Source: Alphaproteobacteria bacterium (GTDB taxonomy: Bacteria > Pseudomonadota > Alphaproteobacteria > DSM-16000 > Inquilinaceae). Taken from it: a stretch of 32,799 nt of DNA. The notes under the pieces are model-generated. The model was not told the origin of the DNA. It did not search any database and saw nothing but the letters and a program-made list of their open reading frames with translations. Where the stretch lies: assembly GCA_029263555.1 (NCBI GenBank), contig JAJUFW010000001.1:1-32799 (forward strand). Direction: 5' to 3'. Both the position numbers and the translations under genes were made by a program. Of this stretch, positions 6,055 through 31,724 are shown piece by piece (position 1 is the stretch's first letter; every line of letters begins with the position of its first letter).

Positions 6055-6107
6055 AAACGAAACGCATTTCAAAACTACTGTACAAAACGCGTTTCACTTT
6101 CTAGCAT
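6055..6107 (+). promoter_or_regulatory. Promoter/operator element, copy 2, in front of the 12-gene operon
   Basis: AAACGAAACGCA (6055-6066), then ACTGTACAAAACGCGTTTC (6077-6095). It reads as TGTACA (6079-6084), a 17 nt spacer, then TAGCAT (6102-6107). The palindrome AAACGCGTTT (6085-6094) lies in the spacer. The element ends about 45 nt upstream of the first binding-protein ATG. Confidence 0.6.
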
Positions 6108-6153
6108 CGTCCCACGAAGATCGATGGAAAAATCGACTAACCAGGGGAGGAAG

Positions 6154-7194: not shown

Positions 7195-7308
7195 CATGAA
7201 CAAGGTCCGGCAATCCTGAAAAGAACCGGACTCTGCCCAGCGGGCGCGGGATCCGGAGCGATCTCGCGCCCGGCCATAAGCCCATAAACAATCGGGAAGG
7301 ATGAGGAA

Positions 7309-8310: not shown

Positions 8311-8393
8311 TCCGACCGTCGCATCAGCGAACGGCCGGCGCCGGGCAACCGGCGCCGGCCCCTTCCCCCCTTCTCCTACCCCGATGGACTCCC

Positions 8394-9536: not shown

Positions 9537-9541
9537 CGCAA

Positions 9542-12300: not shown

Positions 12301-12310
12301 GGAAAGCATC

Positions 12311-16948: not shown

Positions 16949-18105
16949 TGGCGGGCCATCTGCTGGACGAGCAGATCCGGGTCCCCTGCGTCATCATGCG
17001 GGGAGGCACGAGCAAGGGCGTCTTCTTCGACGAAGCCGACCTCCCGGCCGATCCCGAAGATCGCGCCGCCTTGATCCTCGCGGCGATGGGAAGCCCGGAT
17101 CCGCGCCAGATCGACGGCCTCGGCGGCGCCGATCCGCTGACGAGCAAGGTCTGCATCATCGGGCCCGGCGAAGCCTTCGGAGCGCACTGCACCTATACCT
17201 TCGCCCAGGTCGGCATCGACGAGCCCTATGTCGCGCTTTCCGGCAACTGCGGCAATCTGTCGGCCGCGGTCGGCGTCTACGCGATCGAGCGGGGGCTGGC
17301 CCCGGCGCAGGAGCCGGAAACGGAGGTGCGGATATACAACACCAATGCGCGCCAGATCCTGATCGCGCGGGTCCCGGTCCGGAACGGCCGGCCGGCGGTG
17401 GCAGGCGACTACGCCATCGCCGGGGTTCCGGGCACGGCGGCCGAGATCCGGATGGACTACTCGCAGACCGCCGGAGCCACGACCGGCCGGGTGCTGCCGA
17501 CCGGACAGCCGCGCGACAGCCTCTACATCCCGGAATTCGGCCGGTCGATCGAGATTTCGATCGTCGATATCGCCAAGGCGACCTGCTTCTTTCATGCCGC
17601 CGAGGCGGGCATCGCCGGGACGGAGGGACCGGAGGCGTTCACCGAGGAAATCCTCAACCGCTTCTGGGCGATCCGGAACGCGGCCGCCCGGCATATCGGC
17701 CTGGCGCCGGGTTCGCGGCTGCCGACACCCGTCGCCGTCGCCCGGCCGGCCGGCTATGTCAACTACATGACCAAGCAGCCCGTCCACGCCGAGGACGTCA
17801 GCTTCGTCGCGCGCCGGGTGATCGGGCCGCCGCCCCGCCTGCACAAGGCCTTCGCCTCGACGGGCGCGGTGTGCACGGCTTCGGCCGCGCGGATTCCGGG
17901 CACCATCGTCAACGAGGTCTGCCGGACGGACACGGACGACATCGTGCGGATCGGCCACCCGAGCGGGATTTTCCCGGTAAAGATCACCTTCGACGCCGAA
18001 GGTCGGTTGTCGGAGGCTTCCTATTCCCGCACGGCCCGTCGCATTCTCCAGGGCGAGGTCCTGATTCCCCGTCACCGCCTCGCGACCGGTTCGAAACGCC
18101 CCTGA
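16948..18105 (+). CDS. PrpF-family protein (2-methylaconitate isomerase / 4-oxalomesaconate tautomerase family), 385 aa
   Basis: ORF 16711-18105, trimmed to ATG 16948 (TGATG junction). N-terminus VPCVIMRGGTSKGVFFDEADLP, then GSPDPRQIDGLGGADPLTSKVCII. Confidence 0.85.
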   Translation: MAGHLLDEQIRVPCVIMRGGTSKGVFFDEADLPADPEDRAALILAAMGSPDPRQIDGLGGADPLTSKVCIIGPGEAFGAHCTYTFAQVGIDEPYVALSGNCGNLSAAVGVYAIERGLAPAQEPETEVRIYNTNARQILIARVPVRNGRPAVAGDYAIAGVPGTAAEIRMDYSQTAGATTGRVLPTGQPRDSLYIPEFGRSIEISIVDIAKATCFFHAAEAGIAGTEGPEAFTEEILNRFWAIRNAAARHIGLAPGSRLPTPVAVARPAGYVNYMTKQPVHAEDVSFVARRVIGPPPRLHKAFASTGAVCTASAARIPGTIVNEVCRTDTDDIVRIGHPSGIFPVKITFDAEGRLSEASYSRTARRILQGEVLIPRHRLATGSKRP

Positions 18106-18125
18106 AGAACAGCAGAAAGAAGGCC

Positions 18126-18572
18126 ATGACCATAAAGATACCTAGATCCAGGGATTTTTGGGCCGGCGTGACATTCATGCTTGTCGGGGCCCTTGCGATC
18201 TATTTCGGCTCGGATCTCGCGATGGGCGACGTGCGCCGCATGGGGCCACGCTACTTCCCGACCCTTGCGGCCGGCGGCCTGTTGGTGATCGGCGCGATCG
18301 TGGCCTTCCGGGGACTGGGCACCGAAACCGACCCGGGCAAAGCGGGCGCAGTGACGCCGGTGCTGATCCTGCTCTCCGTGCTGCTGTTCGGGCTGCTGCT
18401 CCGGCCGTTCGGCTTCGTCATCGCAACCGTGACGATGATCGCCGTGGCGAGCCTTGCCGGTCCGCGGATGCGTCTGGTCGAGCTCGTCGCCCTGGCGGCG
18501 GCGCTCACGGCGTTCTCCTGGCTCATCTTCGTATGGGCGCTTGGTCTTCCCCTGCAAACCTGGCCGGCGTGA
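18126..18572 (+). CDS. tctB: Tripartite tricarboxylate transporter small membrane subunit TctB, 148 aa
   Basis: This is the tail of ORF 16788-18572, from ATG 18126 (MTIKIPRSRDFWAGVTFMLVGALAIYFG...). It has four hydrophobic segments and sits immediately upstream of tctA. Confidence 0.8.
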   Translation: MTIKIPRSRDFWAGVTFMLVGALAIYFGSDLAMGDVRRMGPRYFPTLAAGGLLVIGAIVAFRGLGTETDPGKAGAVTPVLILLSVLLFGLLLRPFGFVIATVTMIAVASLAGPRMRLVELVALAAALTAFSWLIFVWALGLPLQTWPA

Positions 18573-18573
18573 G

Positions 18574-20082
18574 ATGGAACTTCTGGACAATCTGGCTCTC
18601 GGCCTCAGCGTCGCGCTGTCGGCCGAACATATGCTCGAGTGCCTGCTGGGCACGCTGCTCGGCACCCTGATCGGTGTGCTGCCGGGGCTCGGCCCGACCG
18701 CGACCATCGCGATCCTGTTGCCGATCACCTTCGGCCTGCCGCCTGCGGCTTCGCTGATCATGCTGGCCGGCATCTATTACGGCGCGCAGTATGGCGGGTC
18801 GACGACGTCGATCCTTGTGAACTTGCCCGGCGAGGCCTCGTCGGTCGTCACCTGTCTCGACGGCTACCAGATGGCGAGGCAGGGCAGGGCGGGGCCGGCG
18901 CTGACCGTCGCGGCGCTCGGATCGCTGTTCGCGGGCTGCATCGGCACGCTGTGCCTCGCCCTGTTCGGGCCGCCGCTCGCCAAGGCCGCGCTTTCCTTCG
19001 GACCTGCGGAGTATTTTTCCCTGATGGTCCTCGGGCTGGTGGCAGCGGTCGTGCTTTCGAGCGGGTCGCTCATCAAGGCGATCGGGATGATCTTTATGGG
19101 CCTCATGCTCGGTTGCGTCGGCACGGACGTGAACACCGGCGTGGCGCGCTACACCTTCGGATTTCACGAGCTGGGCGACGGCATCGACTTCATCGTCGTG
19201 GCGATGGGTGTCTTCGCCCTGGCCGAAATCATGCGCAACCTGGAGAAGCCGCAGGATCGCAGCGTGCTGAGCCGGCCGATCGGCCAGCTGCGGCCGAGCC
19301 GGGAAGAGATGCGGCGTTCGGTCGGACCGATCCTCCGCGGCACCACGCTCGGATCCCTGGTCGGCGCGCTCCCGGGGGCGGGCGCTGTGATCTCGTCCTT
19401 CATGTCCTATGCCCTGGAAAAGCGCATCTCGAAGCATCCGGAGCGTTTCGGCAATGGCGCGATCGAGGGTGTGGCCGGCCCGGAATCTGCCAACAACGCC
19501 TGTGCCCAGACCGCGTTCATCCCGCTCCTGACGCTGGGCATTCCGGGCGGCGCCGTCACGGCGCTGATGCTGGGTGCGCTGATGATCCACGGGATCGCGC
19601 CCGGCCCGCAGGTGATGACGCGCAATCCGGACGTGTTCTGGGGGCTCATTGCCAGCATGTGGGTCGGCAACGTGTTCCTGGTCATCCTGAACCTGCCGAT
19701 GATCGGCATCTGGGTCCGGCTGCTCCACCTGCCCTACCGGGTCCTTTTCCCGGCAATCCTCATGTTCTGCTGCATCGGAGTCTTCAGCCTCAACAACAGC
19801 ACCTTCGATGTGATGCTGATGGTCATCTTCGGTGCCTTCGGATACCTGCTGCTGAAGTTCGGGTGCGAGCCGGCGCCGATGCTGCTCGGGTTCATTCTCG
19901 GGCCGATGATGGAAGAGAACCTGCGGCGGGCCCTGCTGCTGTCCCGCGGTGACGCATCCGTGTTCGTCACGCGGCCGATCAGCCTCGTCATGCTGTCGGT
20001 CGCCGTCCTTCTGGTGCTGACCATCGTCCTGCCGGCAATGAAGAAGAGGCGCAACGAGATCCTCGTCGAGGCGGAGGACTGA
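18574..20082 (+). CDS. tctA: Tripartite tricarboxylate transporter large permease TctA, 502 aa
   Basis: ORF 18454-20082, trimmed to ATG 18574, 1 nt after the tctB stop. Starts MELLDNLALGLSVALSAEHMLECLLGTLLGTLIGVLPGLGPTATIAILLP. It is polytopic throughout. Confidence 0.9.
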   Translation: MELLDNLALGLSVALSAEHMLECLLGTLLGTLIGVLPGLGPTATIAILLPITFGLPPAASLIMLAGIYYGAQYGGSTTSILVNLPGEASSVVTCLDGYQMARQGRAGPALTVAALGSLFAGCIGTLCLALFGPPLAKAALSFGPAEYFSLMVLGLVAAVVLSSGSLIKAIGMIFMGLMLGCVGTDVNTGVARYTFGFHELGDGIDFIVVAMGVFALAEIMRNLEKPQDRSVLSRPIGQLRPSREEMRRSVGPILRGTTLGSLVGALPGAGAVISSFMSYALEKRISKHPERFGNGAIEGVAGPESANNACAQTAFIPLLTLGIPGGAVTALMLGALMIHGIAPGPQVMTRNPDVFWGLIASMWVGNVFLVILNLPMIGIWVRLLHLPYRVLFPAILMFCCIGVFSLNNSTFDVMLMVIFGAFGYLLLKFGCEPAPMLLGFILGPMMEENLRRALLLSRGDASVFVTRPISLVMLSVAVLLVLTIVLPAMKKRRNEILVEAED

Positions 20083-20892: not shown

Positions 20893-21345
20893 TCAGCCGG
20901 CCCTGCCGCCGTTCACCGATTCGACCGGCGCGTCGCGCCGGCGGGCCCGTTCGGCATTGTTGATGATGGTCTGGATGGTGACCGACCGAAGGGTGGCGCA
21001 GGTGATCCGGTCGATTTCGCCGAGAACCCTGGACACCTCGTCGGCGACGGTCGTCCCCCGGGATTCGCCGGCCGTCTCGTTGCTCCACCAGTCGTTCTCG
21101 AACAGGCGGACGATGTCGTACAGCGTGATGCGCCTGGCATCGCCGACGAACATGCACCCGCCGGCCGGGCCGCGGATGGAGCTCACGATCTTGGCATGGG
21201 CAAGCGTCCGCAGCACCTTGGCGAGGTGATGCTGCGACACGCCATATTTCGCGGCCAGGTCCGCGGCCGAAACCAGTTCGCCCTTTCGGGACGCGGTTTC
21301 GACAACGGCCCAGATCGCGTACCGGGTCGCCTGCTGTAGTTTCAT
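20893..21345 (-). CDS. Rrf2-family transcriptional regulator, 150 aa
   Basis: MKLQQATRYAIWAVVETASRKGELVSAADLAAKYGVSQHHLAKVLRTLAHAKIVSSIRGPAGG is a typical Rrf2 wHTH. I saw no three-Cys cluster motif. Confidence 0.85.
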   Translation of the reverse strand: MKLQQATRYAIWAVVETASRKGELVSAADLAAKYGVSQHHLAKVLRTLAHAKIVSSIRGPAGGCMFVGDARRITLYDIVRLFENDWWSNETAGESRGTTVADEVSRVLGEIDRITCATLRSVTIQTIINNAERARRRDAPVESVNGGRAG

Positions 21346-21388
21346 CGGCCCTGTCCTTGCCCCTGATCGGGACTCATCTGGCGGATCG

Positions 21389-21877
21389 TCATGATTCGTC
21401 GGCCGACATTTCCAGTTCTATGTACGGGCCCGCGGCCATTCCATGCATCCGGAAGAACGACATCAGCACATGATCGTCGATGTGCAGCATCGTGCGGATC
21501 GTATCCGCACCGGATTCCCGCAGGAAGGCGACCATTTCCCGGAACAGCATCGTGCCCGTCCCGTGCTTGCGGGCGGACGGGTCGACGCCGATCGCGTGAA
21601 TCCAGCCGGCGGGCGGCGAGCCGAATTCCCAGGCGCGAACCGTCCCAATGATGTAGCCGACGACGACATTGTCGCGCCGCGCCACCAGGAAGGCGCTCTT
21701 GGGATTCGTCCCCTGGCTGCTGAAGAACGAGTACCAGAATTCCGCTTTCGGGTGTCCCGTGATCGCGACATCGATGTCGACCACCCGGGGAATATCCGCG
21801 AGGGATGCCGGACCAACGGTTACAAGCTCGCTCGGGAACTGCTCCCGGGTTTCCAGGCCACGGTCGACGGAAGGCAC
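21389..21877 (-). CDS. GNAT-family N-acetyltransferase, 162 aa
   Basis: ORF 21389-21952. Acetyl-CoA binding region HAIGVDPSARKHGTGTMLFREMVAFLRE. Start moved to GTG 21875-21877, with GGAGAG 8 nt upstream. The 25 codons above it are AT-rich and use atypical third positions. The start remains uncertain. Confidence 0.7.
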   Translation of the reverse strand: MPSVDRGLETREQFPSELVTVGPASLADIPRVVDIDVAITGHPKAEFWYSFFSSQGTNPKSAFLVARRDNVVVGYIIGTVRAWEFGSPPAGWIHAIGVDPSARKHGTGTMLFREMVAFLRESGADTIRTMLHIDDHVLMSFFRMHGMAAGPYIELEMSADES

Positions 21878-22030
21878 GGATTTGTCTCTCCAACGGTCTA
21901 TTGTCGGCAGAACAGATAGTTCTGAATGCCTGCAATTTCCACGTATTTCCATTGTAAATAGAGCGGAGATCGGAGGGCCAGCAGAATTTCCGGCGGCGCT
22001 GCCGGCTGCGGCGGAGGCCGGCAGACGCCC

Positions 22031-22049: not shown

Positions 22050-23060
22050 TCAGCCCATCAGCCCGGCTTCCCTGTATGCCCGCTCGGCCCCGGGGTGAAG
22101 CGGCGCGCCGCCGAGCGTTTCGGGCCGCCAGGCGATCTTGGGATCGAAGGGCGAAAGAGCCGCATTCTGCTCCTTCAGGGCATCGGCATTCTCGATGAGC
22201 GCCTTGGTCATCGCATAGGCGAGATCGTCGGACATGCCCGCGTTGACGATCAGCACCGTGGTCGCGCCGGGCAGGGTCAGGTCCTCCGTTATGCCGTCGA
22301 AGGAATTGGCGGGCAGGACCGCGCGCTGATAGCCGAGATCGACCATGGTCTGCAGCGCCTCGTCCGAGATGCTGACCCATTCGATGTCGTGGCTGAACGC
22401 GACTTCCTGGACCTTCGGATGCCCGGGGGTCACGGGCTGGACCCAGACATCGGCACGCCCTTCCACCAGCGCGTCGGCCGCGGCCTGCAGGGCACCGCGG
22501 TTGATCGAGCCGCCGTAACCGTTCAGCGTGGCCTCGTCGATGCCGTGGGCGCGCAGCAGAATCTGTGCGCTCACCTCGCCGATTGAACCCGGCTGGAGGC
22601 ACGAGATCCGGACCGGCTTCTTCGCCGCAAGCGCCTCCGACAGATTCTCGAATCCGGTGCCCTTCCGGGCCAGCATGACGATGTAGTACTGGTCCAGGCC
22701 GCCGGCGAGGGCGCGGACATTCTCCGCCGTCGCGTCCTGAATATCGGTCATGCCGGCAAGCGCCCAGCGCAGATTGGTGCTGAACGTCATGCCGAGCTGG
22801 ATGCGCTGGTTCTCGTTGATCAGCTTGATGTTCCCGACCGCGGCCGCGTAGGGGCGGACGTTCACCGTGCCGCCGCCCGGAAGCACCGGCTGAAGGAACT
22901 GGGCGATCTGAATGCCGTACTGGTACCAGGCACTGCCCGCCGCCATGGTGCCCATGTCGATGTCCTGGGCCTGGGCGAAGGACCGCCCGCCGGCCAGCAT
23001 GACCGAAGCGGCCAGCGATCCGGCAATCACGTCCCGGCGCGACGGCTTGTATGCACTCAT
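22050..23060 (-). CDS. TAXI-family TRAP transporter solute-binding protein, 336 aa
   Basis: Tat-like signal (SRRDVIAGSLAASVMLAGGRSFAQAQD), then GTMAAGSAWYQYGIQIAQFL...VNVRPYAAAVGNIKLINENQ, which is typical of TAXI receptors. It is adjacent to a fused TRAP permease. Confidence 0.85.
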   Translation of the reverse strand: MSAYKPSRRDVIAGSLAASVMLAGGRSFAQAQDIDMGTMAAGSAWYQYGIQIAQFLQPVLPGGGTVNVRPYAAAVGNIKLINENQRIQLGMTFSTNLRWALAGMTDIQDATAENVRALAGGLDQYYIVMLARKGTGFENLSEALAAKKPVRISCLQPGSIGEVSAQILLRAHGIDEATLNGYGGSINRGALQAAADALVEGRADVWVQPVTPGHPKVQEVAFSHDIEWVSISDEALQTMVDLGYQRAVLPANSFDGITEDLTLPGATTVLIVNAGMSDDLAYAMTKALIENADALKEQNAALSPFDPKIAWRPETLGGAPLHPGAERAYREAGLMG

Positions 23061-23090
23061 GGTTACGCACTCCCTAACATTTGTCGTTGT

Positions 23091-25031
23091 TCAGCCGGGT
23101 TGGGTCCCGGACGTTGTTGCGCCGACGGGTTCGACGGACCGGGTCGCCCCCTGCCAGAGAAATATGGCGGCCAGGACGATCCCGCCTGCGGTGCTCACCC
23201 AGAGGGAGGGATAGATCAGCGCCACGGCCGCACCGATCAGCAGGACGCGTTCGACCGGCCGGTTCCTCCGCCGCATGTAGCCGACATTGGCCGCCGCCAG
23301 CGCGTAGACGCCGATCAGCGCCGTGGCGAAGGACACCATCGTCGGCACGGCGTCCCCTTCCATGATCAGGGCGGGCTCGACGACGAAGGCGAAGGGCACC
23401 AGATAGGCCGGAACGGCCAGCCGGACGGTCGTCCATCCGACCCTGGACGAGGAGGTCCCGGCGATCGAGGCCGCCGCGAAGCTGGCGAGCGCCACCGGCG
23501 GCGTAATCATGGACAGGCAGGAGAAGTAGAAGACGAACAGATGGGCGGCCATCTGGTTGACGCCCAGCTGCATGAGCGTCGGAACGAAAAGGGTCGCTCC
23601 CATGATGTAGGCGGCGGTCGTCGGCAGTCCCATCCCCATGACGATGCATCCGACGGATACGGCCACGAGACAGATCAGGAGATTGTCGCCGGACAGCGCC
23701 ACCAGCAGTTCGGTGAAACGCACGCCGATTCCGGTCTGGACGACGATCCCGACGACGATCCCCGCCGCCGCGCTGGGAATGGCGACCGTGATCGCCCGCG
23801 ATCCGCCCGCCGCCTGGGCCTTCCGGATCCGTCGCGGGCCCAGCCGCGACGCGGCCGAGAACAGGCTGACGGCGATGCTGATGCCGACCGCCTCTACCGC
23901 GCCCGCCATGAGCTGCCGGCCGCTCATGACCGCGTAGATGAGATAGGCCAGCGGCAGGAGCAGGTAGAGCTGAGGCAGGCTCTTTGCCAGCGGAACCCGG
24001 TCCTCCGGCGGGATCGGGCGGATGTCGCGGTATCGCGCCTCGAGATCGACCGCCAGGAAGACCGCAAGATAGTAGACGATGGCGGGCAGGACGGAGGCGA
24101 TGACGACCGCGCTGTAAGGCACACCCAGATTCTGGGCGATGATGAAGGCCGCGGCGCCCAGCATCGGCGGCATGAGCTGGCCGCCGGTAGACGAGAGCGC
24201 CTCCACGGCACCGGCGAAATGGGGCTTGTAGCCGGTCCGCTTCATGAGTGGGATCGTGAAGATGCCCGTCCCCATGACATTGGCGACGGCGCTGCCGCTT
24301 GTCATGCCGAGCAGGGCCGAACCCGTGGTGGCCGCTTTCGCCGCTCCTCCGCGATATTTGCCGGTCATGGCGATGGCCAGGTTGATGAAGAGCTGGCCGC
24401 CGCCCGTGGCTTCGAGGAACGCGCCGAAAAGGATGAAATAGAAGACGTATGTCGCCGAGACGCCGATCGGGGTTCCGAAGATGCCTTCCGTCGTCAGCAC
24501 CTGCAGATCCAGGAAGTCGGCCAGGGAGAGCCCGGAATGCCTGAGCGCCGTCGGCAGGCTGGGGCCGGCGAAGGCATAGGCGATGAAGACGAGCACCACG
24601 ATGGTCATGCCGAGCCCGGCGACCCGGCGACCCGCTTCGACGACCATGACGACGATCGCGAGGCCGACCGCCGTATCGACCGAGCTCAGGCTGTCGACCA
24701 GCGGGATCCGGAGCGCCAGCGCCTCGCGGTTCCAGAGATAGTAGGCGAGAACGAGGGCGGAGGCGGCGATGGCAAGGATGCTGATCGCGGCATCGACCGG
24801 GTTGCGGTCGCCGCCGGCCTCCCTCGCCTCGTCCGTCTTCCGGCTCTTCGAGACCGCCGGATAGAGGGCGAAGGTGACGGCAAGAGCGAAGGCCAGGTGC
24901 GCGGGCATGAGGACCAGTTCGTCATAGTTCCCCATGAACACGAACGAAACCTGGACGATCGACCAGAGCCCGGCGAGGAGCATGCCCGCCCAGGCGATCC
25001 TGCGCCCCAGGGCACCGTCGGGAACGGTCAT
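23091..25031 (-). CDS. TRAP transporter fused (small plus large) permease, TAXI-associated type, 646 aa
   Basis: A long polytopic membrane protein, 30 nt upstream of the TAXI receptor gene on the same strand. Confidence 0.85.
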   Translation of the reverse strand: MTVPDGALGRRIAWAGMLLAGLWSIVQVSFVFMGNYDELVLMPAHLAFALAVTFALYPAVSKSRKTDEAREAGGDRNPVDAAISILAIAASALVLAYYLWNREALALRIPLVDSLSSVDTAVGLAIVVMVVEAGRRVAGLGMTIVVLVFIAYAFAGPSLPTALRHSGLSLADFLDLQVLTTEGIFGTPIGVSATYVFYFILFGAFLEATGGGQLFINLAIAMTGKYRGGAAKAATTGSALLGMTSGSAVANVMGTGIFTIPLMKRTGYKPHFAGAVEALSSTGGQLMPPMLGAAAFIIAQNLGVPYSAVVIASVLPAIVYYLAVFLAVDLEARYRDIRPIPPEDRVPLAKSLPQLYLLLPLAYLIYAVMSGRQLMAGAVEAVGISIAVSLFSAASRLGPRRIRKAQAAGGSRAITVAIPSAAAGIVVGIVVQTGIGVRFTELLVALSGDNLLICLVAVSVGCIVMGMGLPTTAAYIMGATLFVPTLMQLGVNQMAAHLFVFYFSCLSMITPPVALASFAAASIAGTSSSRVGWTTVRLAVPAYLVPFAFVVEPALIMEGDAVPTMVSFATALIGVYALAAANVGYMRRRNRPVERVLLIGAAVALIYPSLWVSTAGGIVLAAIFLWQGATRSVEPVGATTSGTQPG

Positions 25032-25413
25032 CGGCCCTCTCCGGGACGGCGCGCACGAGCGCGGGGCCGGTTGGGACGCCTCCTCCGCTCCGCCGTTCCG
25101 TGATCCCGGGACCGATCTGCCGATCTGCGCAGCATCGAAGGGCCTCCCATGATCGTTTTTCTGGTTCGTACCGCCAATGCATCACCCTGCATTTCGACTG
25201 TCAAGTACGAAAATGCCGAATTTACAGCCTGCGAACATCCGAATCTTGCAGCGACGGCTCTGGTGCGCGAGTTTTATATTGGTATTCTGGTATTACGATG
25301 CTCTCATTAACGGCAGCGACGCCAGCGTACGCTCATGGACCATCAACGGGAGGGAGAGCCCGGCAGCCCATCCGGGATCTGCCGCGGACGACGCACAGTG
25401 GAGTGAGCAGCAG

Positions 25414-27051
25414 ATGACAGCGCGGACCGAGATGCGTTTCGACGACCGGATCTATTCGCAGGCCTGGCGGGAATGGCAGGATCCCGCCGTTCCGGAGTTC
25501 TTCAACGCGGCTGAAATGCTCCTCGGCCGTCATGCCGGCACGGCGACCGACGACAAGCCGGCCATCCTGGTGGACGGAAGCGCGGTCAGCTATCGCGAGC
25601 TCCGCGACCTGGTCAGGCGGACGTCGAGGGGCTTGCGCGATCTGGGGCTGCGGACCGGCGACCGGATCCTACTCTTCGGAACGGACAGCCTGGAATATAT
25701 CGCGATCTGGCTGGGCGCTGTCAGGGCCGGGATCGTGCCGGCCGCCGTCTCCGATCTCTATAAGACGAAGGATCTTCTCTATTTCCTCCGGGACACGGAT
25801 GCCCGGGGCCTGTTCATCGACTCCGAACAGCTTCCGAAGCTGGCCGAGATTGCGGACGACCTGCCGGAGGGGCTGGAGGCGATCGTGGTCCGCGGCGGAG
25901 CCGAAGCCCCTGCCGTCGGCTTCGGAGGCCGGACCGTGGTCGATGCCGGCCGGGTGCTGGCGGCCGAGGACAGCCTGCCGGCGCCGCTCCGCCACAGTGA
26001 CGACGTCTGCTACATGTTCTATTCCGGCGGGACGACGGGGACGGCGAAGGGCATTACCCATCTCTGCCACGACTTCTTCCTGGTGCCCGAGCGGCAGGGC
26101 CATTATTGGGAGTACAAGGCGGACGACGTCGTTTTCGCGACCTCCAAGAAATATTTCACCCACGGCCTCTGGCCGGGCATCCTGATTCCCCTCTACTGGG
26201 GCGCGACCGCCGTGCTGCAGCGCCGTCCCCCGACGCCGGAGGCCGTCATCGACGGCGTGACTACCGCCGGGGCGACCAAGTTGATCACCGTGCCGACGGT
26301 CATCAAGAACCTTCTGGAACATTGCCGCGTCAATGACCTGAAGCCCGATTTCGGCAGGCTGCAGTTGGTCGTGAGCGCGTCCGAGAAGATCCCGCCCGAG
26401 ATCTTCGACCGGTTCAGCGGGCTCTTCGGGCTGGAGATCCTGGATTCGATCGGCAGCTCCGAGGTGACCTATGAGTGGATCGCCAACCGGCCGAAGGAGT
26501 TCAAGCGCGGCAGCCTGGGCAAGCCCGTCTTCGGCTATGAAATCCGTCTGGTGGGCCCCGACGGCCAAGACATCGTGGAGCCCGGCGTCGCTGGCGAGGC
26601 CTGGGTGAAGAGCCGGACCGCGTGCTTCTTCTACTGGCGCAAGTTCGACAAGTCCCGGGAAACCTTCATCGGCCCGTGGACCAGGACGGGGGACAACCTC
26701 TATTTCGACGAGGACGGCTTCTTCTGGTTCGCCGGTCGCGAGAACGACGTCTTCAAGGTGAAGGGCCTGTGGGTCTCGCCGATCGAGATCGAGGCGGCGA
26801 TCACCGAGCATCCGGCCGTTCTCGAAGCGGCGGTGGTGGCCTATGAGGACAAGGACGGAATGACGAAGCCGCGAGCCTTCGTCGTCCTGCGCACCGACAC
26901 CCAAGCCGACGACGCCCTGGTGGAGGCGTTGAAGGAACGGGTTCGCGTGCTGGGCGGCTACAAGGTGCCGGAAGACTTCCGCTTCGTCGACCAGCTGCCG
27001 CGCACGACGCTCATGAAGATCGACCGCAGGGCGTTGCGGGCGCTTCCCTGA
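25414..27051 (+). CDS. AMP-forming aromatic-acid CoA ligase (benzoate-CoA ligase family), 545 aa
   Basis: ORF 25177-27051, trimmed to ATG 25414 (MTARTEMRFDD...). The upstream 79 codons are AT-rich and look non-coding. Motifs: AMP motif MFYSGGTTGTAKG, LDSIGSSEV, WTRTGDNLYFDEDGFFWFAGRENDVFKVKGLWVSPIEIE, and terminal MKIDRRALR. Confidence 0.85.
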   Translation: MTARTEMRFDDRIYSQAWREWQDPAVPEFFNAAEMLLGRHAGTATDDKPAILVDGSAVSYRELRDLVRRTSRGLRDLGLRTGDRILLFGTDSLEYIAIWLGAVRAGIVPAAVSDLYKTKDLLYFLRDTDARGLFIDSEQLPKLAEIADDLPEGLEAIVVRGGAEAPAVGFGGRTVVDAGRVLAAEDSLPAPLRHSDDVCYMFYSGGTTGTAKGITHLCHDFFLVPERQGHYWEYKADDVVFATSKKYFTHGLWPGILIPLYWGATAVLQRRPPTPEAVIDGVTTAGATKLITVPTVIKNLLEHCRVNDLKPDFGRLQLVVSASEKIPPEIFDRFSGLFGLEILDSIGSSEVTYEWIANRPKEFKRGSLGKPVFGYEIRLVGPDGQDIVEPGVAGEAWVKSRTACFFYWRKFDKSRETFIGPWTRTGDNLYFDEDGFFWFAGRENDVFKVKGLWVSPIEIEAAITEHPAVLEAAVVAYEDKDGMTKPRAFVVLRTDTQADDALVEALKERVRVLGGYKVPEDFRFVDQLPRTTLMKIDRRALRALP

Positions 27052-27171
27052 CGGGGGTCGCCTCCACGGCCCCTGCGCCACCGGGGCGGCCTGACCCGCC
27101 CGGGGTCATGGGGATGAAATGCGGGCGGCCGGCCATCTCGGCCAGCCGCCCAACGATCGGGGTCAGGAGAC

Positions 27172-27197
27172 GAGAGGACGGCGCACCGTCCCCTCTC
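27172..27197. terminator. Imperfect hairpin between the convergent ligase and UbiD-family genes
   Basis: GGACGG (27176-27181), loop cgca, then CCGTCC (27186-27191). GAGA/TCTC extends the stem across a 2 nt bulge. No U-tract. Confidence 0.25.
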
Positions 27198-27211
27198 CCC
27201 ATCCCGTTCGG

Positions 27212-28768
27212 TCACTCCGTCTTGAACCCGTATTCGGCCCAGCGTCGGGCGACGAGTTCCGCGTGCTCCGGCAGCGGACGGACGGTCGGCGGATAGCGGT
27301 CGCCCTTGTATTGTTCCTGCGGCTCGAAATCGAGGTTCCGGGTCGCGTCGATGAGGACGCGGCACCACTTGCCGGTGCCCCACTTGATGGGATCGCGGTA
27401 TTCCAGCCGGGTCGACGGATCGAGCAGCGAGCCGAAGGTGCCGGGGAAGAAGACGATGTCGTCCTCCGCGGCGTTGACGCGATAGGCGAACGCCCAGTCG
27501 AGCGCGCCATAGTCCCGGATGTCGATATCGTCGTCCACGACCCAGATGTGCTTGTAGCGCAGGTGCGAGGAGTTCGAGCCCCAGATTGCGGCTGCCGCCT
27601 GCTTGGCCTGGCCGCGATAGGTCTGCTTGAGTTGGATGATCAGCGTCGTGCCGTTGTTGGCGGCCGAGCAGTGGACGTCGGTGACACCCGGGACGCCCGC
27701 CGCCTTCAGCACGTTCCAGGCGACGCCGGCGCGCTGGACCGAGCTGGTGACCGAGTTCTCGTTCAGCATCTTCGGCAGCGTGCCCTCGAGCGTGCCGCGG
27801 AAGATCGGATTCCGGCGCATGGTGACGCAGGTGACCTTGGTCACGTGCTTCGGGCCCTGGTCGCCGCCGAAATAGCCCGTGTACTCGCCGAACGGGCCTT
27901 CCATCTCGAAGGTCGAGGGATCCGCATCGATATAGCCTTCGATGACCAGCTCGGCGCTGGCCGGCACCATAATGTCGCTGGTCTCGCACTTCACCAGCGG
28001 CACCGGCTCGCCGCGGATGGCGCCCATGACCTCGTATTCGGAGACGCCGGTCGGGATCGGGGCCGAGGCGCAATAGGGCAGCACCGGCTCCCAGCCATAG
28101 ACATGGGCGACCGGCATCTTCATGCCGCGTTCGGCCCATTTCTGGAAATGCTGGCCCCAGTGCTGCGCCTTCCAGAGAAGGACCGGGATCGTATCCTTCT
28201 GGCCCAGCATGCCGCGATAGATGCCGATATTGTGCTGCCCCGTATCGGGATCGATCGTGACCGTTCCCTGATAGGTGTTGATGTAGCGCCCGCCGTCCAG
28301 GCCGTGCCACCGGGGGACCGGCAGCTTGTAGACGTCGATCTCGTCCCCCTTGTAGATCACCTCCTTGACCGGACCGGTCTCGACCGTCGCCGGCTTCACC
28401 CGCTGGCTGAAATAGTGCTGCGTCGCCAGGATCAGATCCCGAACCGACGCCGTCTTCGGCAGGCCCAGCATCATGGCGATACGGCGGTAGCTGGAGAGCC
28501 CGCCGGTGAAGAGCTGCCGGGACCAGACGTCGTCGTTGGGCCCGTAATCCTTGATGTTCTTGAACAGCAGCGCGGGCCCGTCGCCCGTGCCGAAGGCCCG
28601 CCGGGCGATCGCCCCCAGCTCTCCGTCCCAGTTCACCTCGGCATCGATCTCGTGCAGCTCCCCCTCCTGGCGCAGCGCCTCGATCCATCCGCGAAGATCA
28701 CCGAAGGCGCGCGGCTTCAGCTTGCTCACGATCTCCGGATTCTCGGAGGCAGTATCGGTCATGGGCAT
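27212..28768 (-). CDS. UbiD-family (prFMN-dependent) decarboxylase, 518 aa
   Basis: Full-length UbiD architecture. The conserved E-x4-E acid motif is present (FEMEGPFGEYTGYFGG), along with IGIYRGM, KAQHWGQH and PASAELVIEGYI. The start could instead be the third codon, ATG 28760-28762. Confidence 0.9.
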   Translation of the reverse strand: MPMTDTASENPEIVSKLKPRAFGDLRGWIEALRQEGELHEIDAEVNWDGELGAIARRAFGTGDGPALLFKNIKDYGPNDDVWSRQLFTGGLSSYRRIAMMLGLPKTASVRDLILATQHYFSQRVKPATVETGPVKEVIYKGDEIDVYKLPVPRWHGLDGGRYINTYQGTVTIDPDTGQHNIGIYRGMLGQKDTIPVLLWKAQHWGQHFQKWAERGMKMPVAHVYGWEPVLPYCASAPIPTGVSEYEVMGAIRGEPVPLVKCETSDIMVPASAELVIEGYIDADPSTFEMEGPFGEYTGYFGGDQGPKHVTKVTCVTMRRNPIFRGTLEGTLPKMLNENSVTSSVQRAGVAWNVLKAAGVPGVTDVHCSAANNGTTLIIQLKQTYRGQAKQAAAAIWGSNSSHLRYKHIWVVDDDIDIRDYGALDWAFAYRVNAAEDDIVFFPGTFGSLLDPSTRLEYRDPIKWGTGKWCRVLIDATRNLDFEPQEQYKGDRYPPTVRPLPEHAELVARRWAEYGFKTE

Positions 28769-29153
28769 TTCCTTCCATTGGGCGCCGACCCGCTCACGCC
28801 CGGCTTCCGAGCTCAGAGCGATCGGCTGCGACGGGGACTGGCCTGATTGACTCAGGCTCGTTCCAGCTCGGGTGACGTCTGGCGAGCTGATAAACGCGTA
28901 TACCTATACCAGATAGTGATTTTGTGTCCACAAGAATGCGAAACGAAAGCGAATCTTGCGCAGCCCAGCGCCCCCTATGGGCGTCCCCGGCCGAGATCGT
29001 TCGTGGCATTACGTTACCAAAATGCCGCCCGGCGTTGCCGGGTGCGGTCCGGCGTACTAGACTGCCGTCGAAATGCCGAAGATAGAGCGTCCGGCGACCG
29101 GGGTCCCCGACCGAGTCCCCCGCGCCGGCAGCAACCTACCACCCCAAAGCGAT

Positions 29154-29693
29154 ATGGATCGTCCCATCGACCTGACCGGCCCGCACTGGGCCTTTTCCCT
29201 GGATGTCTACGGCCAGCCGACGGTCCCGGCATCCTGCCTGCTGCTGCAGGACCGCTGCGGCGTCGACGTGAACGTGCTGCTGCTGTGCCTCTTCGCCGCC
29301 TGCCGGGGCGCCCCGACGCCGTCCGAACAGGACATCGCCGCCCTGGACGGCGAGATCGAACGTCTGCGCCGGGAGGTGGTCGTGCCCCTGCGGCAGATCC
29401 GCCGCGCCATGAAGATCATGCCGGAAGCGGATCTGGGGCGCGAGTTCGACTCCGTACGCAATCGGGTGAAATCCGCCGAGCTGGCGGCCGAGCAGCTGCA
29501 GCAGGCCATGCTGGCGAGGCTGTTGCCGGACGGGAGCCCGCGCGGCGACTTCGACGCGCTAGCGACGGCAAGGGCGGTCGTCGGCTTCTATGCCGGGCGG
29601 ACCGGGTCCCGGGACGCGATGGGAGACGAGGACATCGAGCGCGCGATCGCATCCGTTGCCGACGCGGCGCAACGTGCCGGCGGCAGATCATGA
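29154..29693 (+). CDS. DUF2390 / TIGR02444-family protein of unknown function, 179 aa
   Basis: ORF 29073-29693, trimmed to ATG 29154 (MDRPIDLTGPHWAFSLDVYGQPTVPASCLLLQDRCGVDVNVLLLCLFAA). The family was recognised from memory of its N-terminal signature. Confidence 0.6.
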   Translation: MDRPIDLTGPHWAFSLDVYGQPTVPASCLLLQDRCGVDVNVLLLCLFAACRGAPTPSEQDIAALDGEIERLRREVVVPLRQIRRAMKIMPEADLGREFDSVRNRVKSAELAAEQLQQAMLARLLPDGSPRGDFDALATARAVVGFYAGRTGSRDAMGDEDIERAIASVADAAQRAGGRS

Positions 29694-30271
29694 CCCCAGC
29701 CGAGCGTTCCGTGCAGGTGTCGCTGCTCGATCCCGGAACCGATCGCGTCGTCGCGACCATGGACAAGCTGCAGGCGCATGTGGAGGGCCGCTACCATGCC
29801 GCCATCTCGGTCCTGCTGCACAGCCCGGACGGCGGGCAGCTCATACAGCAGAGGGCGGTCGCGAAGTATCACGGCGGCGGGCTGTGGAGCAATGCGTGCT
29901 GCAGCCATCCCCTTCCCGGGGAAAGCGCGGCGGCGGCCGCACAGCGGCGCCTGCACGAGGAGATGGGGATCACGACGCCTCTCACGCCGGTCGGCGTCGT
30001 CCGCTATCGGGCGGAGGTGCCGGTGGCCGGGGGCGGCTTCCTGATCGAGCACGAGCGCGTCGAGATCTTCGCCGGCGTCTATGACGGGCCGGTCGATCCC
30101 GATCCGGCGGAGGTGGCACAGACGCGCTGGCTTCCGCCCGGCCATGTCCCGGGCGGGCCGGACGTCCGGCTCACGCCCTGGTTCCGGCTTTACACGGAAA
30201 TCATCGATGCGCGCCCGGGCCGGCTGCCCCGAGCGCCCGTCGACTACGGGTATTTCGATCTGTCCTGCTGA
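29690..30271 (+). CDS. idi: Isopentenyl-diphosphate delta-isomerase, type 1 (Nudix fold), 193 aa
   Basis: This is the tail of ORF 28847-30271, from ATG 29690 (ATGA overlap with the DUF2390 stop). IDI-1 catalytic and metal residues are visible: HVEGRYHAAISV, WSNACCSHP (Cys/His) and IEHERVEIF (Glu-x-Glu). Confidence 0.85.
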   Translation: MTPAERSVQVSLLDPGTDRVVATMDKLQAHVEGRYHAAISVLLHSPDGGQLIQQRAVAKYHGGGLWSNACCSHPLPGESAAAAAQRRLHEEMGITTPLTPVGVVRYRAEVPVAGGGFLIEHERVEIFAGVYDGPVDPDPAEVAQTRWLPPGHVPGGPDVRLTPWFRLYTEIIDARPGRLPRAPVDYGYFDLSC

Positions 30272-30322
30272 ACCGGCCCGGGTCCGGACGTCGCCGACCC
30301 CGCCCTGCCGCAGCCCGGCCCT

Positions 30323-30931
30323 TCAGCCCGCGTCGTCCGGGAGAGGCGTCGCCCGGCCGCTCGCCGGCTCGTCCTCGCGCCAGCGCTTGACGATGCGCGC
30401 GTCGATGTCGAACAGGTCCAGCGCGCGCCCGACCGTCTGGTTCACAATGTCGTCGATCGTCTTCGGCCGGTGATAGAAAGCCGGCACCGGGGGCATGACG
30501 ATGGCGCCGGCGCGGGTCGCCTGGTCCATGAGCGAGATATGCCCGGCATGCAGCGGCGTCTCGCGAAGCAGGAGGACGACCCGCCGCCTCTCCTTCAGGC
30601 AGACATCGGCCGCCCGCACCACCAGTTCGTCGTTGTAGCAGTTGGCGATCCCGCTCAAGGTCTTGATCGAGCAGGGCGCGACCAGCATGCCTTCGACCCT
30701 GAACGACCCGGACGAGATCGCCGCGCCGATGTCGCGGTGGCTGTAGACCTTGTCCGCAAGGTCCCGCACCTCGTCGGCCGTGTGATCGGTTTCCTCGAGC
30801 AGCGTCCGCACGGCCGACGGCGTCATGACGAGATGCGTCTCCACGTCCGGCAGCTGCCGCAGGACCTGAAGCGCACGCACCCCGTAGATGACGCCGGAGG
30901 CGCCGGTCAGCGCGACGATGAGTCTTCTCAT
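30323..30931 (-). CDS. ubiX: UbiX flavin prenyltransferase (prFMN synthase), 202 aa
   Basis: RLIVALTGASGVIYGVRALQVL, MLVAPCSIKTLSGIANCYNDELVVRAADVCLKERRRVVLLLRETPL and MPPVPAFYHRPKTIDDIV. ATGA overlap with the upstream MaoC gene at 30928-30931. Confidence 0.9.
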   Translation of the reverse strand: MRRLIVALTGASGVIYGVRALQVLRQLPDVETHLVMTPSAVRTLLEETDHTADEVRDLADKVYSHRDIGAAISSGSFRVEGMLVAPCSIKTLSGIANCYNDELVVRAADVCLKERRRVVLLLRETPLHAGHISLMDQATRAGAIVMPPVPAFYHRPKTIDDIVNQTVGRALDLFDIDARIVKRWREDEPASGRATPLPDDAG

Positions 30932-31449
30932 GACATTTCCTTCCCCAAGGCCGATCCGGCATCCGCCGCGTCGTCCTGCCTCGGGACGACAAGCTGCGGG
31001 CGCATGATCTGCACGATTTCATCGTTCTGGTTGCGGGTTTCGACCCGGACGCCGGCGAGGCCGATATCCGGCCGTGAGCGGGATTCCCTCAAAGTCTCGA
31101 CCGTGACGACCACATGCAGCTCGTCATCGGGCACGACCGGGCGCGGCCAGCGGATCTCCCCCACGCCGGCGCCGATCAGCCCACCCGCGATCGGCACCGC
31201 CTCCACGAACAGGCGCATGGTCACGGCCGCAGTATGCCAGCCGCTGGCGACGAGCCTGCCGAACAGGGTCTGGGCCGCGCGTTCGGGGTCGACGTGAAAG
31301 ACCTGGGGATCGTAGACAGTGGCGAACGCGCGGATGTCCGCAAGCGTCATGCGATGGCTGCGGGAGCGGAAGCTGTCCCCGATCCGGAGCTGGCTGAAGG
31401 TGAGAAGATCCCGCCTATCGGGCGCGACGACGCTGGCGTTCCGGATCAT
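30928..31449 (-). CDS. MaoC-like (hotdog-fold) dehydratase family protein, 173 aa
   Basis: ORF 30928-31485, trimmed to ATG 31447-31449 (MIRNASV...), with GGAG 6 nt upstream. Contains FATVYDPQVFHVDPERAAQTLFGRLVASGWHTAAV, a hydratase-2/MaoC-type motif. Confidence 0.75.
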   Translation of the reverse strand: MIRNASVVAPDRRDLLTFSQLRIGDSFRSRSHRMTLADIRAFATVYDPQVFHVDPERAAQTLFGRLVASGWHTAAVTMRLFVEAVPIAGGLIGAGVGEIRWPRPVVPDDELHVVVTVETLRESRSRPDIGLAGVRVETRNQNDEIVQIMRPQLVVPRQDDAADAGSALGKEMS

Positions 31450-31724
31450 GACGTCTCCGTTGGCTGTCCGGCACCAGGCCGGCATGCGGCGGCACCGCGC
31501 CGATGCGCCTGCATCTCGACGACCTGCTCGGCGGCTTGATCACGGGGCCTTCTCATGCGATCCAATTCGGTATTCCGGTACAAGTTTATGACCATAATCC
31601 GCCCAAGGCAATCCGCGTCTTGCCCGCACGGGCCGGTTGGCGGCCGGCGGCCACTGCGATAGTGTCGACCGGCCGACACCGGCCGCGGACGGCCCCTGTC
31701 GACGGCTGCCGGAGGGCGAAGGCG

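Follow-up and report, generated by a model that had tools for sequence, protein, structure and literature searches.

The window analysed here, a stretch of 32,799 nucleotides, carries a real, partly conserved gene cluster. All eight genes described in a sequence-only reading of this DNA were found where it had placed them, and gene calls on the near-identical public contigs L085 and L086 give identical boundaries, apart from a UbiD call shorter by two codons. Family profile scores bear out the gene identities, and coordinates and strands confirm the alternating divergent and convergent layout. A TAXI-type TRAP solute receptor (22050-23060, minus strand; TIGR02122, 138 bits against a cut-off of 84) neighbours a fused TRAP permease of the DctQM type (23091-25031, minus; TIGR02123, 590 bits against 321). 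An aryl-CoA ligase of the benzoate-CoA ligase family (25414-27051, plus; TIGR02262, 412 bits against 375) converges, across 160 bp, on a predicted UbiD-family prFMN-dependent decarboxylase (27212-28768, minus; UbiD_N/UbiD/UbiD_C; TIGR00148, 308 bits against 245). The gene for a DUF2390/TIGR02444 protein (29154-29693, plus; above cut-offs, Pfam 97 bits) ends in a stop codon overlapping the start codon of idi, which encodes a divergent type 1 isopentenyl-diphosphate isomerase (29690-30271, plus; Nudix, IDI-like; NF002995, 116 bits against 127). On the opposite strand, ubiX, encoding a DMAPP-type flavin prenyltransferase (30323-30931, minus; PRK06029, 263 bits against 188), overlaps start to stop with maoC, encoding a MaoC-type hotdog protein (30928-31449, minus; Pfam MaoC_dehydratas, 59 bits against 27).

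The left edge of the module had been set at 22050, but a GNAT-Rrf2 pair (20893-21952) is part of it as well. The pair comprises a GNAT acetyltransferase-family protein (21389-21952, minus; Pfam Acetyltransf_1), whose start is put by gene callers at 21877, yielding 162 amino acids (gene call in L085), and an Rrf2-family regulator (20893-21345, minus; Pfam Rrf2, 84 bits; TIGR00738, 90 bits against 73). In every relative carrying the pair, the GNAT gene immediately precedes the Rrf2 gene, and the pair adjoins orthologous UbiD in L007, L067, L068, L073 and L087. Rrf2 is probably the last gene of a TRAP-TAXI-GNAT-Rrf2 transcription unit; its translation has just two cysteines and misses the three-cysteine cluster motif.

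Three divergent spacers separate the units. The permease/ligase spacer (25032-25413) holds the conserved boxes GCATTTCGAC (25189), GGCATTTTCGTA (25208-25219, minus) and GGTATTCTGGTA (25281); the UbiD/DUF2390 spacer (28769-29153) holds GGCATTTTGGTA (29015-29026, minus) and again GCATTTCGAC (29067-29076, minus); and the maoC/methyltransferase spacer (31450-31724; methyltransferase gene start at 31725 in the L085 call) holds GCATCTCGAC (31511) and GGTATTCCGGTA (31569). Both GGYATTYYGGTA and GCATYTCGAC are confined to these three spacers, and their shuffle statistics are not independent because the boxes were defined after viewing these spacers. L001 and L002 conserve two blocks of the permease/ligase spacer in their orthologous spacers, and GGYATTYYGGTA is also present there between ligase and TRAP. 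The cluster-less Rrf2, together with the GNAT protein, probably controls the units via the shared boxes.

The E-x4-E motif of UbiD, earlier described as intact, corresponds to E290-GPFG-E295. N180, R185, E244, E290 and E295 are invariant across 81 UbiD orthologues, and the catalytic and cofactor residues are intact in the window enzyme and invariant across its clade. The suggestion that the protein may have an uncharacterised specificity found support: judged by sequence, it belongs to a large uncharacterised clade, and identity with ubiquinone-biosynthesis UbiD was ruled out (PRK10922, 172 bits against a cut-off of 788). It is remote from ubiquinone UbiD, VdcC and HmfF, and most of all from phthaloyl-CoA decarboxylase. 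Among solved UbiD enzymes PhdA, HudA and HmfF score 179-224 bits, and phthaloyl-CoA decarboxylase is the weakest and most distant match (64 bits, E 1e-16). Gene contexts differ widely within the clade. A ligase within 10 kb is missing from the majority of the 80 orthologous loci, and many of them have TAXI-TRAP or TTT importers (L005, for example, is ordered LysR|UbiD-TAXI-TRAP); orthologues as close as 75-81% identity sit in loci with importers and without a ligase.

The ligase carries the motifs previously noted, SIGSSEV (345-351), WTRTGD (422-427) and KVKGLWVSPIEIE (448-460), and its top solved relatives are anthranilate-CoA and benzoate-CoA ligases. Its orthologues (57-78% identity) adjoin orthologous UbiD in 15-16 loci, and the permease's protein cluster does so in 15. 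The conserved core of the cluster is made up of importer, benzoate-CoA-ligase-family ligase and UbiD; Propylenella binzhouense, Xanthobacter and several MAGs have it too. The UbiD-ligase-TRAP-TAXI synteny is kept in L001 and L002 (the latter Propylenella), with identities of 87% for UbiD, 78% for the ligase, 70-71% for the permease and 73-74% for the TAXI receptor; L087 and Xanthobacter hold the core in rearranged form, and the fuller versions of the cluster are found in L087 and Xanthobacter tagetidis. The pairing of UbiD with a ligase and with an importer of carboxylates is conserved, in support of the earlier reading. The ligase is missing from most orthologous loci, and therefore its coupling to UbiD could be specific to a subset; a Rhodoplanes ligase orthologue sits among folate genes without UbiD.

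In relatives, UbiD and the ligase are coupled with a molybdenum hydroxylase that is HmfABC-like, as well as with hydrolases or amidohydrolases. Ligase, XDH-type Mo hydroxylase and UbiD occur together in seven loci (L024, L030, L060, L067, L068, L073 and L087), and the hydroxylase, aligned over its full length, shares 52-56% identity with the HmfA-like subunit from an hmf-type cluster in Bosea. Likewise, UbiD, Mo hydroxylase and amidohydrolase reappear in two of the three neighbourhoods examined from the ligase side. No Mo hydroxylase was found in the window or in the 10 kb past its right end.

The cofactor genes suggest a local source of prFMN. The nearest solved structure to UbiX is A. niger PadA1 (AnUbiX), which is DMAPP-specific and whose Q203 is the DMAPP-type glutamine (PMC6541611); Gln165 of the window UbiX aligns with it. 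By alignment, IDI keeps all metal and catalytic residues of E. coli IDI (H25, H32, C67, H69, Y104, E114, E116 and W161). Since UbiX has the DMAPP-type glutamine, the IDI encoded alongside, whose catalytic residues are intact, plausibly supplies it, in keeping with the in-cluster cofactor supply proposed earlier. Outside the source organism IDI occurs, among the loci examined, only in L088, as a DUF2390-Nudix operon. MaoC retains an Asp-x4-His hydratase motif and is co-transcribed with ubiX, and its pathway membership is uncertain; a counterpart was found in none of the related loci examined. The count of seven functionally linkable genes was too strong, because MaoC is confined to the source organism among these loci.

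DUF2390 is no bystander: it regularly travels with UbiX, the enzyme that makes prFMN. It adjoins UbiX in 19 of 24 well-flanked metagenome loci, is found close to UbiX or UbiD on five annotated plasmids, and is the most consistently UbiX-linked of the genes examined. Its AlphaFold model is all-helical (pLDDT 95) and matches no PDB fold. DUF2390 probably serves the UbiX/prFMN system as an accessory that had gone unrecognised. By analogy with LpdD/VdcD-type partners, which are likewise small proteins encoded beside UbiX/UbiD genes, it may assist cofactor loading; no sequence or fold kinship to these partners was found, and DUF2390 differs from them in being tied to UbiX and not to one UbiD subfamily.

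Together, with moderate confidence, we read the cluster as a catabolic upper-pathway module with its own cofactor supply, following the logic of the furandicarboxylate branch of the hmf pathway with different enzymes. The TAXI-TRAP system would import an organic acid, most likely an aromatic or heteroaromatic one with two carboxyl groups, probably heteroaromatic and possibly an N-heterocycle. UbiD, to judge from family and context, would take one carboxyl off the free acid via prFMN, and the ligase would turn the remaining mono-acid into its CoA thioester. In relatives the HmfABC-like enzyme would then hydroxylate the thioester and the hydrolases open it; this lower pathway is absent from the window. 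IDI would provide DMAPP, with which UbiX would prenylate reduced FMN, assisted by DUF2390. This order is preferred because relatives add the HmfABC-like hydroxylase and hydrolases, and many orthologues have an importer without a ligase. MaoC does not fit the scheme.

The importer had been said to favour either CoA ligation before decarboxylation or the reverse; the evidence favours the second order over the first. If the di-acid were ligated first and UbiD decarboxylated the thioester, as in phthalate and isophthalate pathways, the importer and the ligase and UbiD kept together as convergent neighbours would be explained, and the isophthalate pathway uses exactly a ligase plus UbiD (PMC9516798). 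We consider this order unlikely, given the distance to phthaloyl-CoA decarboxylase, the close UbiD orthologues in ligase-free importer loci, and the occurrence, alongside the ligase, of a furoyl-CoA-dehydrogenase-like enzyme whose substrate would be the mono-acid thioester. Aliphatic chemistry, with Fdc1-like decarboxylation of an alpha,beta-unsaturated dicarboxylate, activation of the enoic acid by the ligase and hydration of the enoyl-CoA by MaoC, would use the hydratase motif of the ubiX-linked MaoC and may connect to an upstream PrpD/CoA-transferase/PrpF island; a large C5/C6 acid metabolism island is located at 4.9-20 kb. Some orthologous loci again contain members of the acyl-CoA dehydrogenase, enoyl-CoA hydratase, PrpF and 2-hydroxyacid dehydrogenase families, which is weak evidence because families were clustered at only at least 30% identity. 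This aliphatic route seems improbable, as the ligase passes the curated benzoate-CoA ligase family threshold, MaoC is missing from all related loci examined, and the relatives' partners, Mo hydroxylases and (amido)hydrolases, are enzymes characteristic of ring catabolism. Nor is it probable that UbiD and UbiX alone are functionally tied, with ligase, importer, IDI and MaoC as unrelated neighbours: the scarcity of IDI and MaoC elsewhere and the highly variable contexts would fit, but synteny at 70-87% protein identity in two genomes, its rearranged form in two others and the boxes shared among the module spacers speak against it. UbiD enzymes are reversible, and the ligase could in principle pull an unfavourable carboxylation of a neutral (hetero)aromatic by trapping the acid as its CoA ester. 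Proposed benzene and naphthalene carboxylase clusters show a similar pairing of UbiD with a ligase (PMC12016498), but carboxylation is very improbable here, since orthologous contexts carry receptor-dependent organic-anion importers (TAXI-TRAP, TTT, NMT1-type ABC) that a neutral substrate does not need, and the partner subunits typical of carboxylase candidates were not seen.

Known systems resemble the hmf-like module in different respects. The phthaloyl-CoA decarboxylase (Pcd) and IPCL/IPCD systems likewise cluster the genes for a UbiD-family enzyme with those for UbiX, CoA activation and carboxylate import, but Pcd is the most distant solved homologue and the order of steps is probably reversed. 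PhdA, the phenazine-1-carboxylate decarboxylase of Mycolicibacterium fortuitum (PDB 7PDA), is the top-scoring solved UbiD (224 bits, 35% identity over 424 residues, far too low for common specificity) and acts on a free N-heteroaromatic acid; unlike the window enzyme it has no partner ligase, and phenazine-related neighbours are missing around the window UbiD. HudA (PA0254), the pyrrole-2-carboxylate decarboxylase of Pseudomonas aeruginosa, scores similarly (190 bits) at low identity. Its E317-N318, of which N318 hydrogen-bonds the ring nitrogen, aligns with the clade-invariant E337-N338 of the window UbiD, next to a 3-residue gap; HudA, in contrast, needs neither a ligase nor a dedicated importer. 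As for the hmf pathway, whose clusters use TAXI-type, TauA-type and TctC-type importers (PMC8091172), the window UbiD is just 31% identical to that of the Bosea hmf cluster, matches solved HmfF with a lower score than PhdA, and carries Asn at the position of the His that specifies furan in HmfF. The window ligase belongs to the benzoate-CoA ligase family and shares 23% identity with its hmf-cluster counterpart, and the window carries neither HmfABC nor HmfE. The upper enzymes of the module are not orthologous to the hmf ones. What the two would share is the logic, with UbiD/UbiX acting on a di-acid, CoA ligation of the mono-acid and Mo-dependent hydroxylation of the thioester, and relatives of the module carry the HmfA-like hydroxylase for the last step.

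Pfam and NCBIfam scans bore out every gene that the sequence-only reading had named, and its placement. A TAXI receptor (22050-23060; TIGR02122, 138 bits vs a cut-off of 84) and a fused TRAP (DctQM) permease (23091-25031; TIGR02123, 589.5 bits vs 320.65) lie on the reverse strand, and both exceed the curated cut-offs for TAXI-TRAP membership. Beyond them are a benzoate-CoA ligase family protein (25414-27051, forward; TIGR02262, 411.9 bits vs 375.25), a UbiD protein with all three domains (27212-28768, reverse; TIGR00148, 307.5 bits vs 244.85; UbiD_N, UbiD and UbiD_C at 71, 218 and 89 bits in Pfam), a DUF2390/TIGR02444 protein that exceeds its cut-offs (29154-29693, forward), a Nudix protein resembling type 1 IDI (29690-30271, forward), UbiX (30323-30931, reverse; PRK06029, 263 bits vs 188) and a MaoC hotdog protein (30928-31449, reverse; Pfam, 59 bits vs 27). 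The ligase motifs quoted in that reading and the UbiD E290-x4-E295 are present, and the ligase carries all of the adenylate-forming motifs SGGTTG, SIGSSEV, WTRTGD and KVKG. The left edge of the module was drawn too short, as a GNAT-Rrf2 pair (20893-21952, reverse) that had not been listed immediately follows the TAXI gene in the same orientation. This pair resembles regulator-enzyme pairs such as CymR-CysK, and the translated Rrf2 protein has two cysteines only, without the usual three-cysteine motif. Two near-identical public contigs (L085 and L086) carry this gene set, and gene calling places its boundaries alike; past the window's right end they carry a methyltransferase, a P-type ATPase and MerR, all unrelated to the module. 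Megablast of the 9.4-kb module against plasmids gave zero matches.

The observation stands, and the core of the module is conserved. We mapped the window proteins onto a sample of 80 genomic loci encoding UbiD relatives, and clustered all ORFs. The orthologous UbiD group shares 68-87% identity with the window protein. Two loci, L001 and L002 (Propylenella binzhouense L72), have UbiD, ligase (78%), fused permease (70-71%) and TAXI receptor (73-74%) in the window's order. Ligase orthologues (57-78% identity) adjoin orthologous UbiD in 15-16 loci and TAXI-TRAP permeases of the window's cluster adjoin UbiD in 15, the remaining importer types beside orthologous UbiD being TTT or NMT1-type ABC. The GNAT-Rrf2 pair, conserved next to the UbiD clade in six genomes, accompanies orthologous UbiD in L007, the locus L087 and three genomes of Xanthobacter; in L087, DUF2390 is the third gene alongside the pair. 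UbiX is next to UbiD in four related loci only, the single counterpart of IDI among the other loci is in L088, and MaoC has none among the clustered ORFs of related loci.

Several neighbours outside this core were also observed. A TauE/SafE-family anion exporter gene, not found in the window, lies between UbiD and ligase in L001 (~1827-2570), L002 (~11627-12370) and L087 (13208-13969). The exporter, together with the host Xanthobacter tagetidis, a thiophene-degrading bacterium (PMC6624754), points to a possibly sulfur-containing substrate. A 79-kb scaffold of Propylenella binzhouense (L081) has at least four UbiD paralogues within 20 kb, several of them paired with TTT transporters and ornithine cyclodeaminase/mu-crystallin family genes. 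In the window, an island at 4901-20082 encodes a 2-hydroxyacid dehydrogenase, TctC, an acyl-CoA dehydrogenase, three MmgE/PrpD proteins, two family III CoA-transferases, an enoyl-CoA hydratase, PrpF and TctA. These families partly recur in UbiD-clade loci, but the clustering was at >=30% identity only, which leaves the link unproven.

Judged by HMMER scores, the best solved relative of the window UbiD is PhdA (PDB 7PDA; 224 bits, 35% identity over 424 aligned residues), a phenazine-1-carboxylate decarboxylase. HudA scores 190 bits, solved HmfF 179 (less than PhdA), the E. coli UbiD structures 161, VdcC 144 and AroY 118. Phthaloyl-CoA decarboxylase (Pcd) is the weakest among 40 solved UbiD sequences (64 bits, E 1e-16), and we rejected a Pcd/IPCD-type acyl-CoA-decarboxylating UbiD on account of this distance. 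Tight clustering with ubiquinone-biosynthesis UbiD, which the sequence-only reading had regarded as incompatible with its proposal, was not found: the NF008175 equivalog gave 171.5 bits vs a cut-off of 788. Likewise rejected were VdcC/hydroxyarylic acid decarboxylase (NF041204, 273 bits vs 650, with no VdcD-like gene among the window ORFs scanned) and HmfF, given its score, 31% identity to the UbiD of an hmf-type cluster of Bosea vestrisii and Asn338 at the furan-recognition position. At E <= 1e-30 the database yielded 3331 homologues; among the matches listed, more than 100 clusters share at least 57% identity, with generic names throughout and mostly from alphaproteobacterial MAGs. In tblastn against plasmids the best UbiD match reached at most 33% identity, so there is no annotated close relative there.

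Residues N168, R173, H191, E233, E277 and E282 of Fdc1, comprising the catalytic Arg, the Glu-x4-Glu, and the metal and phosphate ligands, align with N180, R185, H203, E244, E290 and E295 of the window protein. Apart from H203, none of these varies among 81 orthologues and 47 tandem paralogues. Residue 203 (codon ~28160-28162), aligned with the Fdc1 Mn ligand H191, is His in the window and Asn in 63 of the 81 orthologues. E337-N338 is invariant across the UbiD clade. In the HMMER alignment N338 pairs with HudA N318, which forms a hydrogen bond to the ring nitrogen; at the equivalent position HmfF has H297, the furan-specifying histidine. N338 may thus hint at an N-H heteroaromatic substrate, a hint that is only weak because a 3-residue gap adjoins the site. 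The UbiX gene lies 1.5 kb from the UbiD gene, and the window UbiD is predicted from its family to depend on prFMN.

The tandem paralogue (54-59% identity) precedes the orthologue in ~47 loci (L008-L058 and others, at ~8300-11550 in each), mostly in MAGs of Rhodospirillaceae and other Alphaproteobacteria, several of them clearly marine. Its catalytic motif has Y-A-E-F in place of F-G-E-Y. The arrangement suggests that the two proteins may act together, either as a heteromer or in two steps. The conserved genes that follow the marine pairs were rejected as pathway partners; they are housekeeping genes (TadA-like deaminase, pseudouridine synthase, RsmD, MutL, PGI), and therefore reflect chromosomal synteny and not a pathway. 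At 6094-8574 of the metagenome contig L083, an unusually long protein of 826 residues with UbiD domains is encoded next to a UbiD 82% identical to the window's.

Short boxes recur in the module's three divergent spacers (permease/ligase, UbiD/DUF2390 and maoC/methyltransferase). GGYATTYYGGTA occurs in the window in exactly three copies (25281, 29015, 31569), one in each spacer, and GCATYTCGAC also in exactly three (25189, 29067, 31511) in the same spacers, forming pairs at 25189-25292, 29015-29076 and 31511-31580. GCATYTCGAC is 50-92 bp upstream of GGYATTYYGGTA each time, with constant relative order and orientation. Shuffle counts are not independent, since the patterns were defined after inspection of the spacers. 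Some independent support comes from 6 of 169 scanned loci that contain GGYATTYYGGTA, including the orthologous ligase/permease spacers of L001 (4364-4375) and L002 (14207-14218). The two boxes may represent a shared operator or promoter element, and GGYATTYYSGTA boxes are putative Rrf2 targets. Scans for sigma-70 promoters and terminators were uninformative.

The window UbiX most resembles the A. niger UbiX, which is DMAPP-specific (196 bits), and the window Gln165 aligns with AnUbiX Q203 and O157 UbiX H164 (PMC6541611). The DMAP-specific Pseudomonas UbiX has a blocking F181 at the position of AnUbiX Q203 (PMC6541611). With Gln or His, not Phe, at PaUbiX position 181 as the mark of the DMAPP type, the window UbiX is predicted to be DMAPP-using. 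The IDI-like protein falls under its equivalog cut-offs (NF002995, 115.9 bits vs 127; TIGR02150, 88.9 vs 105.8); aligned to the E. coli IDI structures 1I9A/1NFS, it conserves all metal and catalytic residues (H25, H32, C67, H69, Y104, E114, E116, W161). Gln165 and the intact IDI residues uphold the earlier proposal that UbiX and IDI supply the cofactor within the module. A DMAPP-making isomerase beside a DMAPP-type UbiX would form a plausible, consistent supply line, although few related loci have IDI.

To our knowledge, the prFMN cofactor pathway is thought to require UbiX alone, and DUF2390 could add a component to it. A UbiX or UbiD-family gene was present in all DUF2390 contexts examined (L087, L088, L089, Xanthobacter and Bosea). 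An alignment of 23 family members, run against metagenome contigs, retrieved 80 loci, all from the subfamily that a single peptide pattern could reach; the association is seen in genome context only. Co-oriented UbiX lies within 1 kb of DUF2390 in 53 of these 80. Where at least 1.5 kb flanks the gene on both sides (n=24), UbiX is within 1 kb in 19, always on the same strand, and UbiX or UbiD is present in 21. The commonest operon is DUF2390-UbiX-CMD-UbiD, whose UbiD is divergent and not the ubiquinone enzyme. Five annotated plasmids (Bosea and four more; L170, L172-L175) place DUF2390 near UbiX or UbiD, the four further ones linking it to different UbiD subfamilies, VdcCD included. In the window and L088, the IDI-like Nudix gene stands downstream of DUF2390 in place of UbiX.

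The DUF2390 family has invariant W12, Y19, C28, Q32, D38, N40, R80, R83, K87, R102, K106, E109, E113 and Q117, and its AlphaFold model is all-helical (pLDDT 95). Foldseek found no match to the model in the PDB at E <= 0.001 (TM-scores < 0.3), and a literature search on DUF2390/TIGR02444 function found nothing relevant. Co-transcription with UbiX in most sampled loci and with IDI in the window and L088, and the company of at least four UbiD subfamilies (the window clade, HmfF-like, VdcC-like and CMD-linked divergent), led us to the tentative reading, to which we give slightly less than an even chance, that DUF2390 is an unrecognised third UbiX-UbiD component, a small all-helical protein of new fold that would aid the making, delivery or maturation of prFMN or the handling of dimethylallyl phosphate. 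A role as DMAPP-to-DMAP phosphatase is less attractive, since at the DMAPP-excluding position the linked UbiX proteins have either His or Gln and in no case Phe. Many UbiD enzymes are difficult to obtain in active form when expressed heterologously, and co-expression of DUF2390 could be practically useful if it aids prFMN supply or loading.

Many UbiD orthologues have an importer without a ligase, as in L005 (LysR|UbiD-TAXI-TRAP), and phthaloyl-CoA decarboxylase is the only thioester-decarboxylating UbiD that we know of. Such loci, and the remoteness of the window UbiD from that enzyme, make a free acid the simplest reading of the UbiD substrate. The imported free acid would be decarboxylated by UbiD, and the ligase, where present, would most likely activate the product for an HmfABC-like hydroxylase. 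Our best guess for the substrate class is a heteroaromatic di-acid, possibly an N-heterocycle. The sequence-only reading had favoured either CoA ligation followed by decarboxylation of the thioester, or decarboxylation followed by ligation of the mono-acid. The second fits the free-acid reading and the ligase-less loci; the first, with Pcd at only 64 bits, lost ground, and these same two lines of evidence make the CoA-first route unlikely. An aliphatic route employing MaoC is quite unlikely, as MaoC is without counterpart in related loci, and we rate equally low a merely loose neighbourhood, given the gene order shared with L001 and L002. Operation in the carboxylation direction is very unlikely.

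Relatives of the module suggest where the decarboxylated product would go. One 20-kb stretch of L087 encodes an XDH-type Mo hydroxylase (large subunit fused to a CoxG domain, FAD subunit, 2Fe-2S subunit), an MBL-fold hydrolase, a cupin, a PcaD-like enol-lactonase, GNAT-Rrf2-DUF2390, LysR, UbiD (~80% identical), TauE, ligase, two TAXI receptors and a permease. The gene order in Xanthobacter tagetidis is Mo hydroxylase, GNAT, Rrf2, ABC importer, UbiD, UbiX, ligase and DUF2390. The hydroxylase trio is beside orthologous UbiD in 12 loci, 7 of which also have the ligase there. Look-ups from the ligase side found UbiD, Mo hydroxylase and amidohydrolase together in 2 of 3 cases. In the third, Rhodoplanes sp. 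Z2-YC6860 (L176, 7155-10638), the ligase orthologue (64% identity) directly follows folP-folB-folK, with no UbiD nearby. Amidases or amidohydrolases also occur in L060, L062 and L088. The window has an MBL-fold hydrolase with a B_lactamase-like_C domain (1094-2116), whose architecture matches the one inside the L087 Mo-hydroxylase operon. The Mo hydroxylase found in relatives' clusters is absent from the window: no molybdopterin-binding domain of a complete hmf-type pathway was detected in the scanned window ORFs or 10 kb past the right edge. The window lacks a lower pathway for the CoA ester. Searches of the literature for gene clusters of Xanthobacter tagetidis, for sequence networks of UbiD and for UbiD paired with TAXI yielded nothing relevant.

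UbiD enzymes attract interest as reversible (de)carboxylases, and we know of only a handful of specificities. The present clade is large, spans soil and marine Alphaproteobacteria, and includes two hosts in culture, Propylenella binzhouense and Xanthobacter tagetidis, in which its substrate could be traced; identifying that substrate would define a new route of heteroaromatic acid breakdown. The main value of the module lies in this uncharacterised UbiD specificity with cultured hosts, and in a potential new partner for the prFMN machinery, DUF2390.

The module is not a new kind of system. The hmf-type cluster on the Bosea vestrisii plasmid comprises Mo, FAD and FeS subunits, ligase, enoyl-CoA hydratase, thioesterase, a LivK-type ABC system, aldehyde dehydrogenase, UbiX, TIGR02444 and UbiD. 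The relatives' hydroxylases are close to it (large subunits 52-56% identical over their full length, FAD 45%, FeS 59%), whereas the window UbiD shares 31% identity and the window ligase 23% with their Bosea counterparts. We rejected orthology of the ligase to HmfD at this 23%, for which the reference was the Bosea cluster ligase and not C. basilensis HmfD itself. There is, we estimate, an even chance that the scheme follows hmf logic with non-orthologous upper enzymes, in which free-acid decarboxylation would precede CoA ligation.
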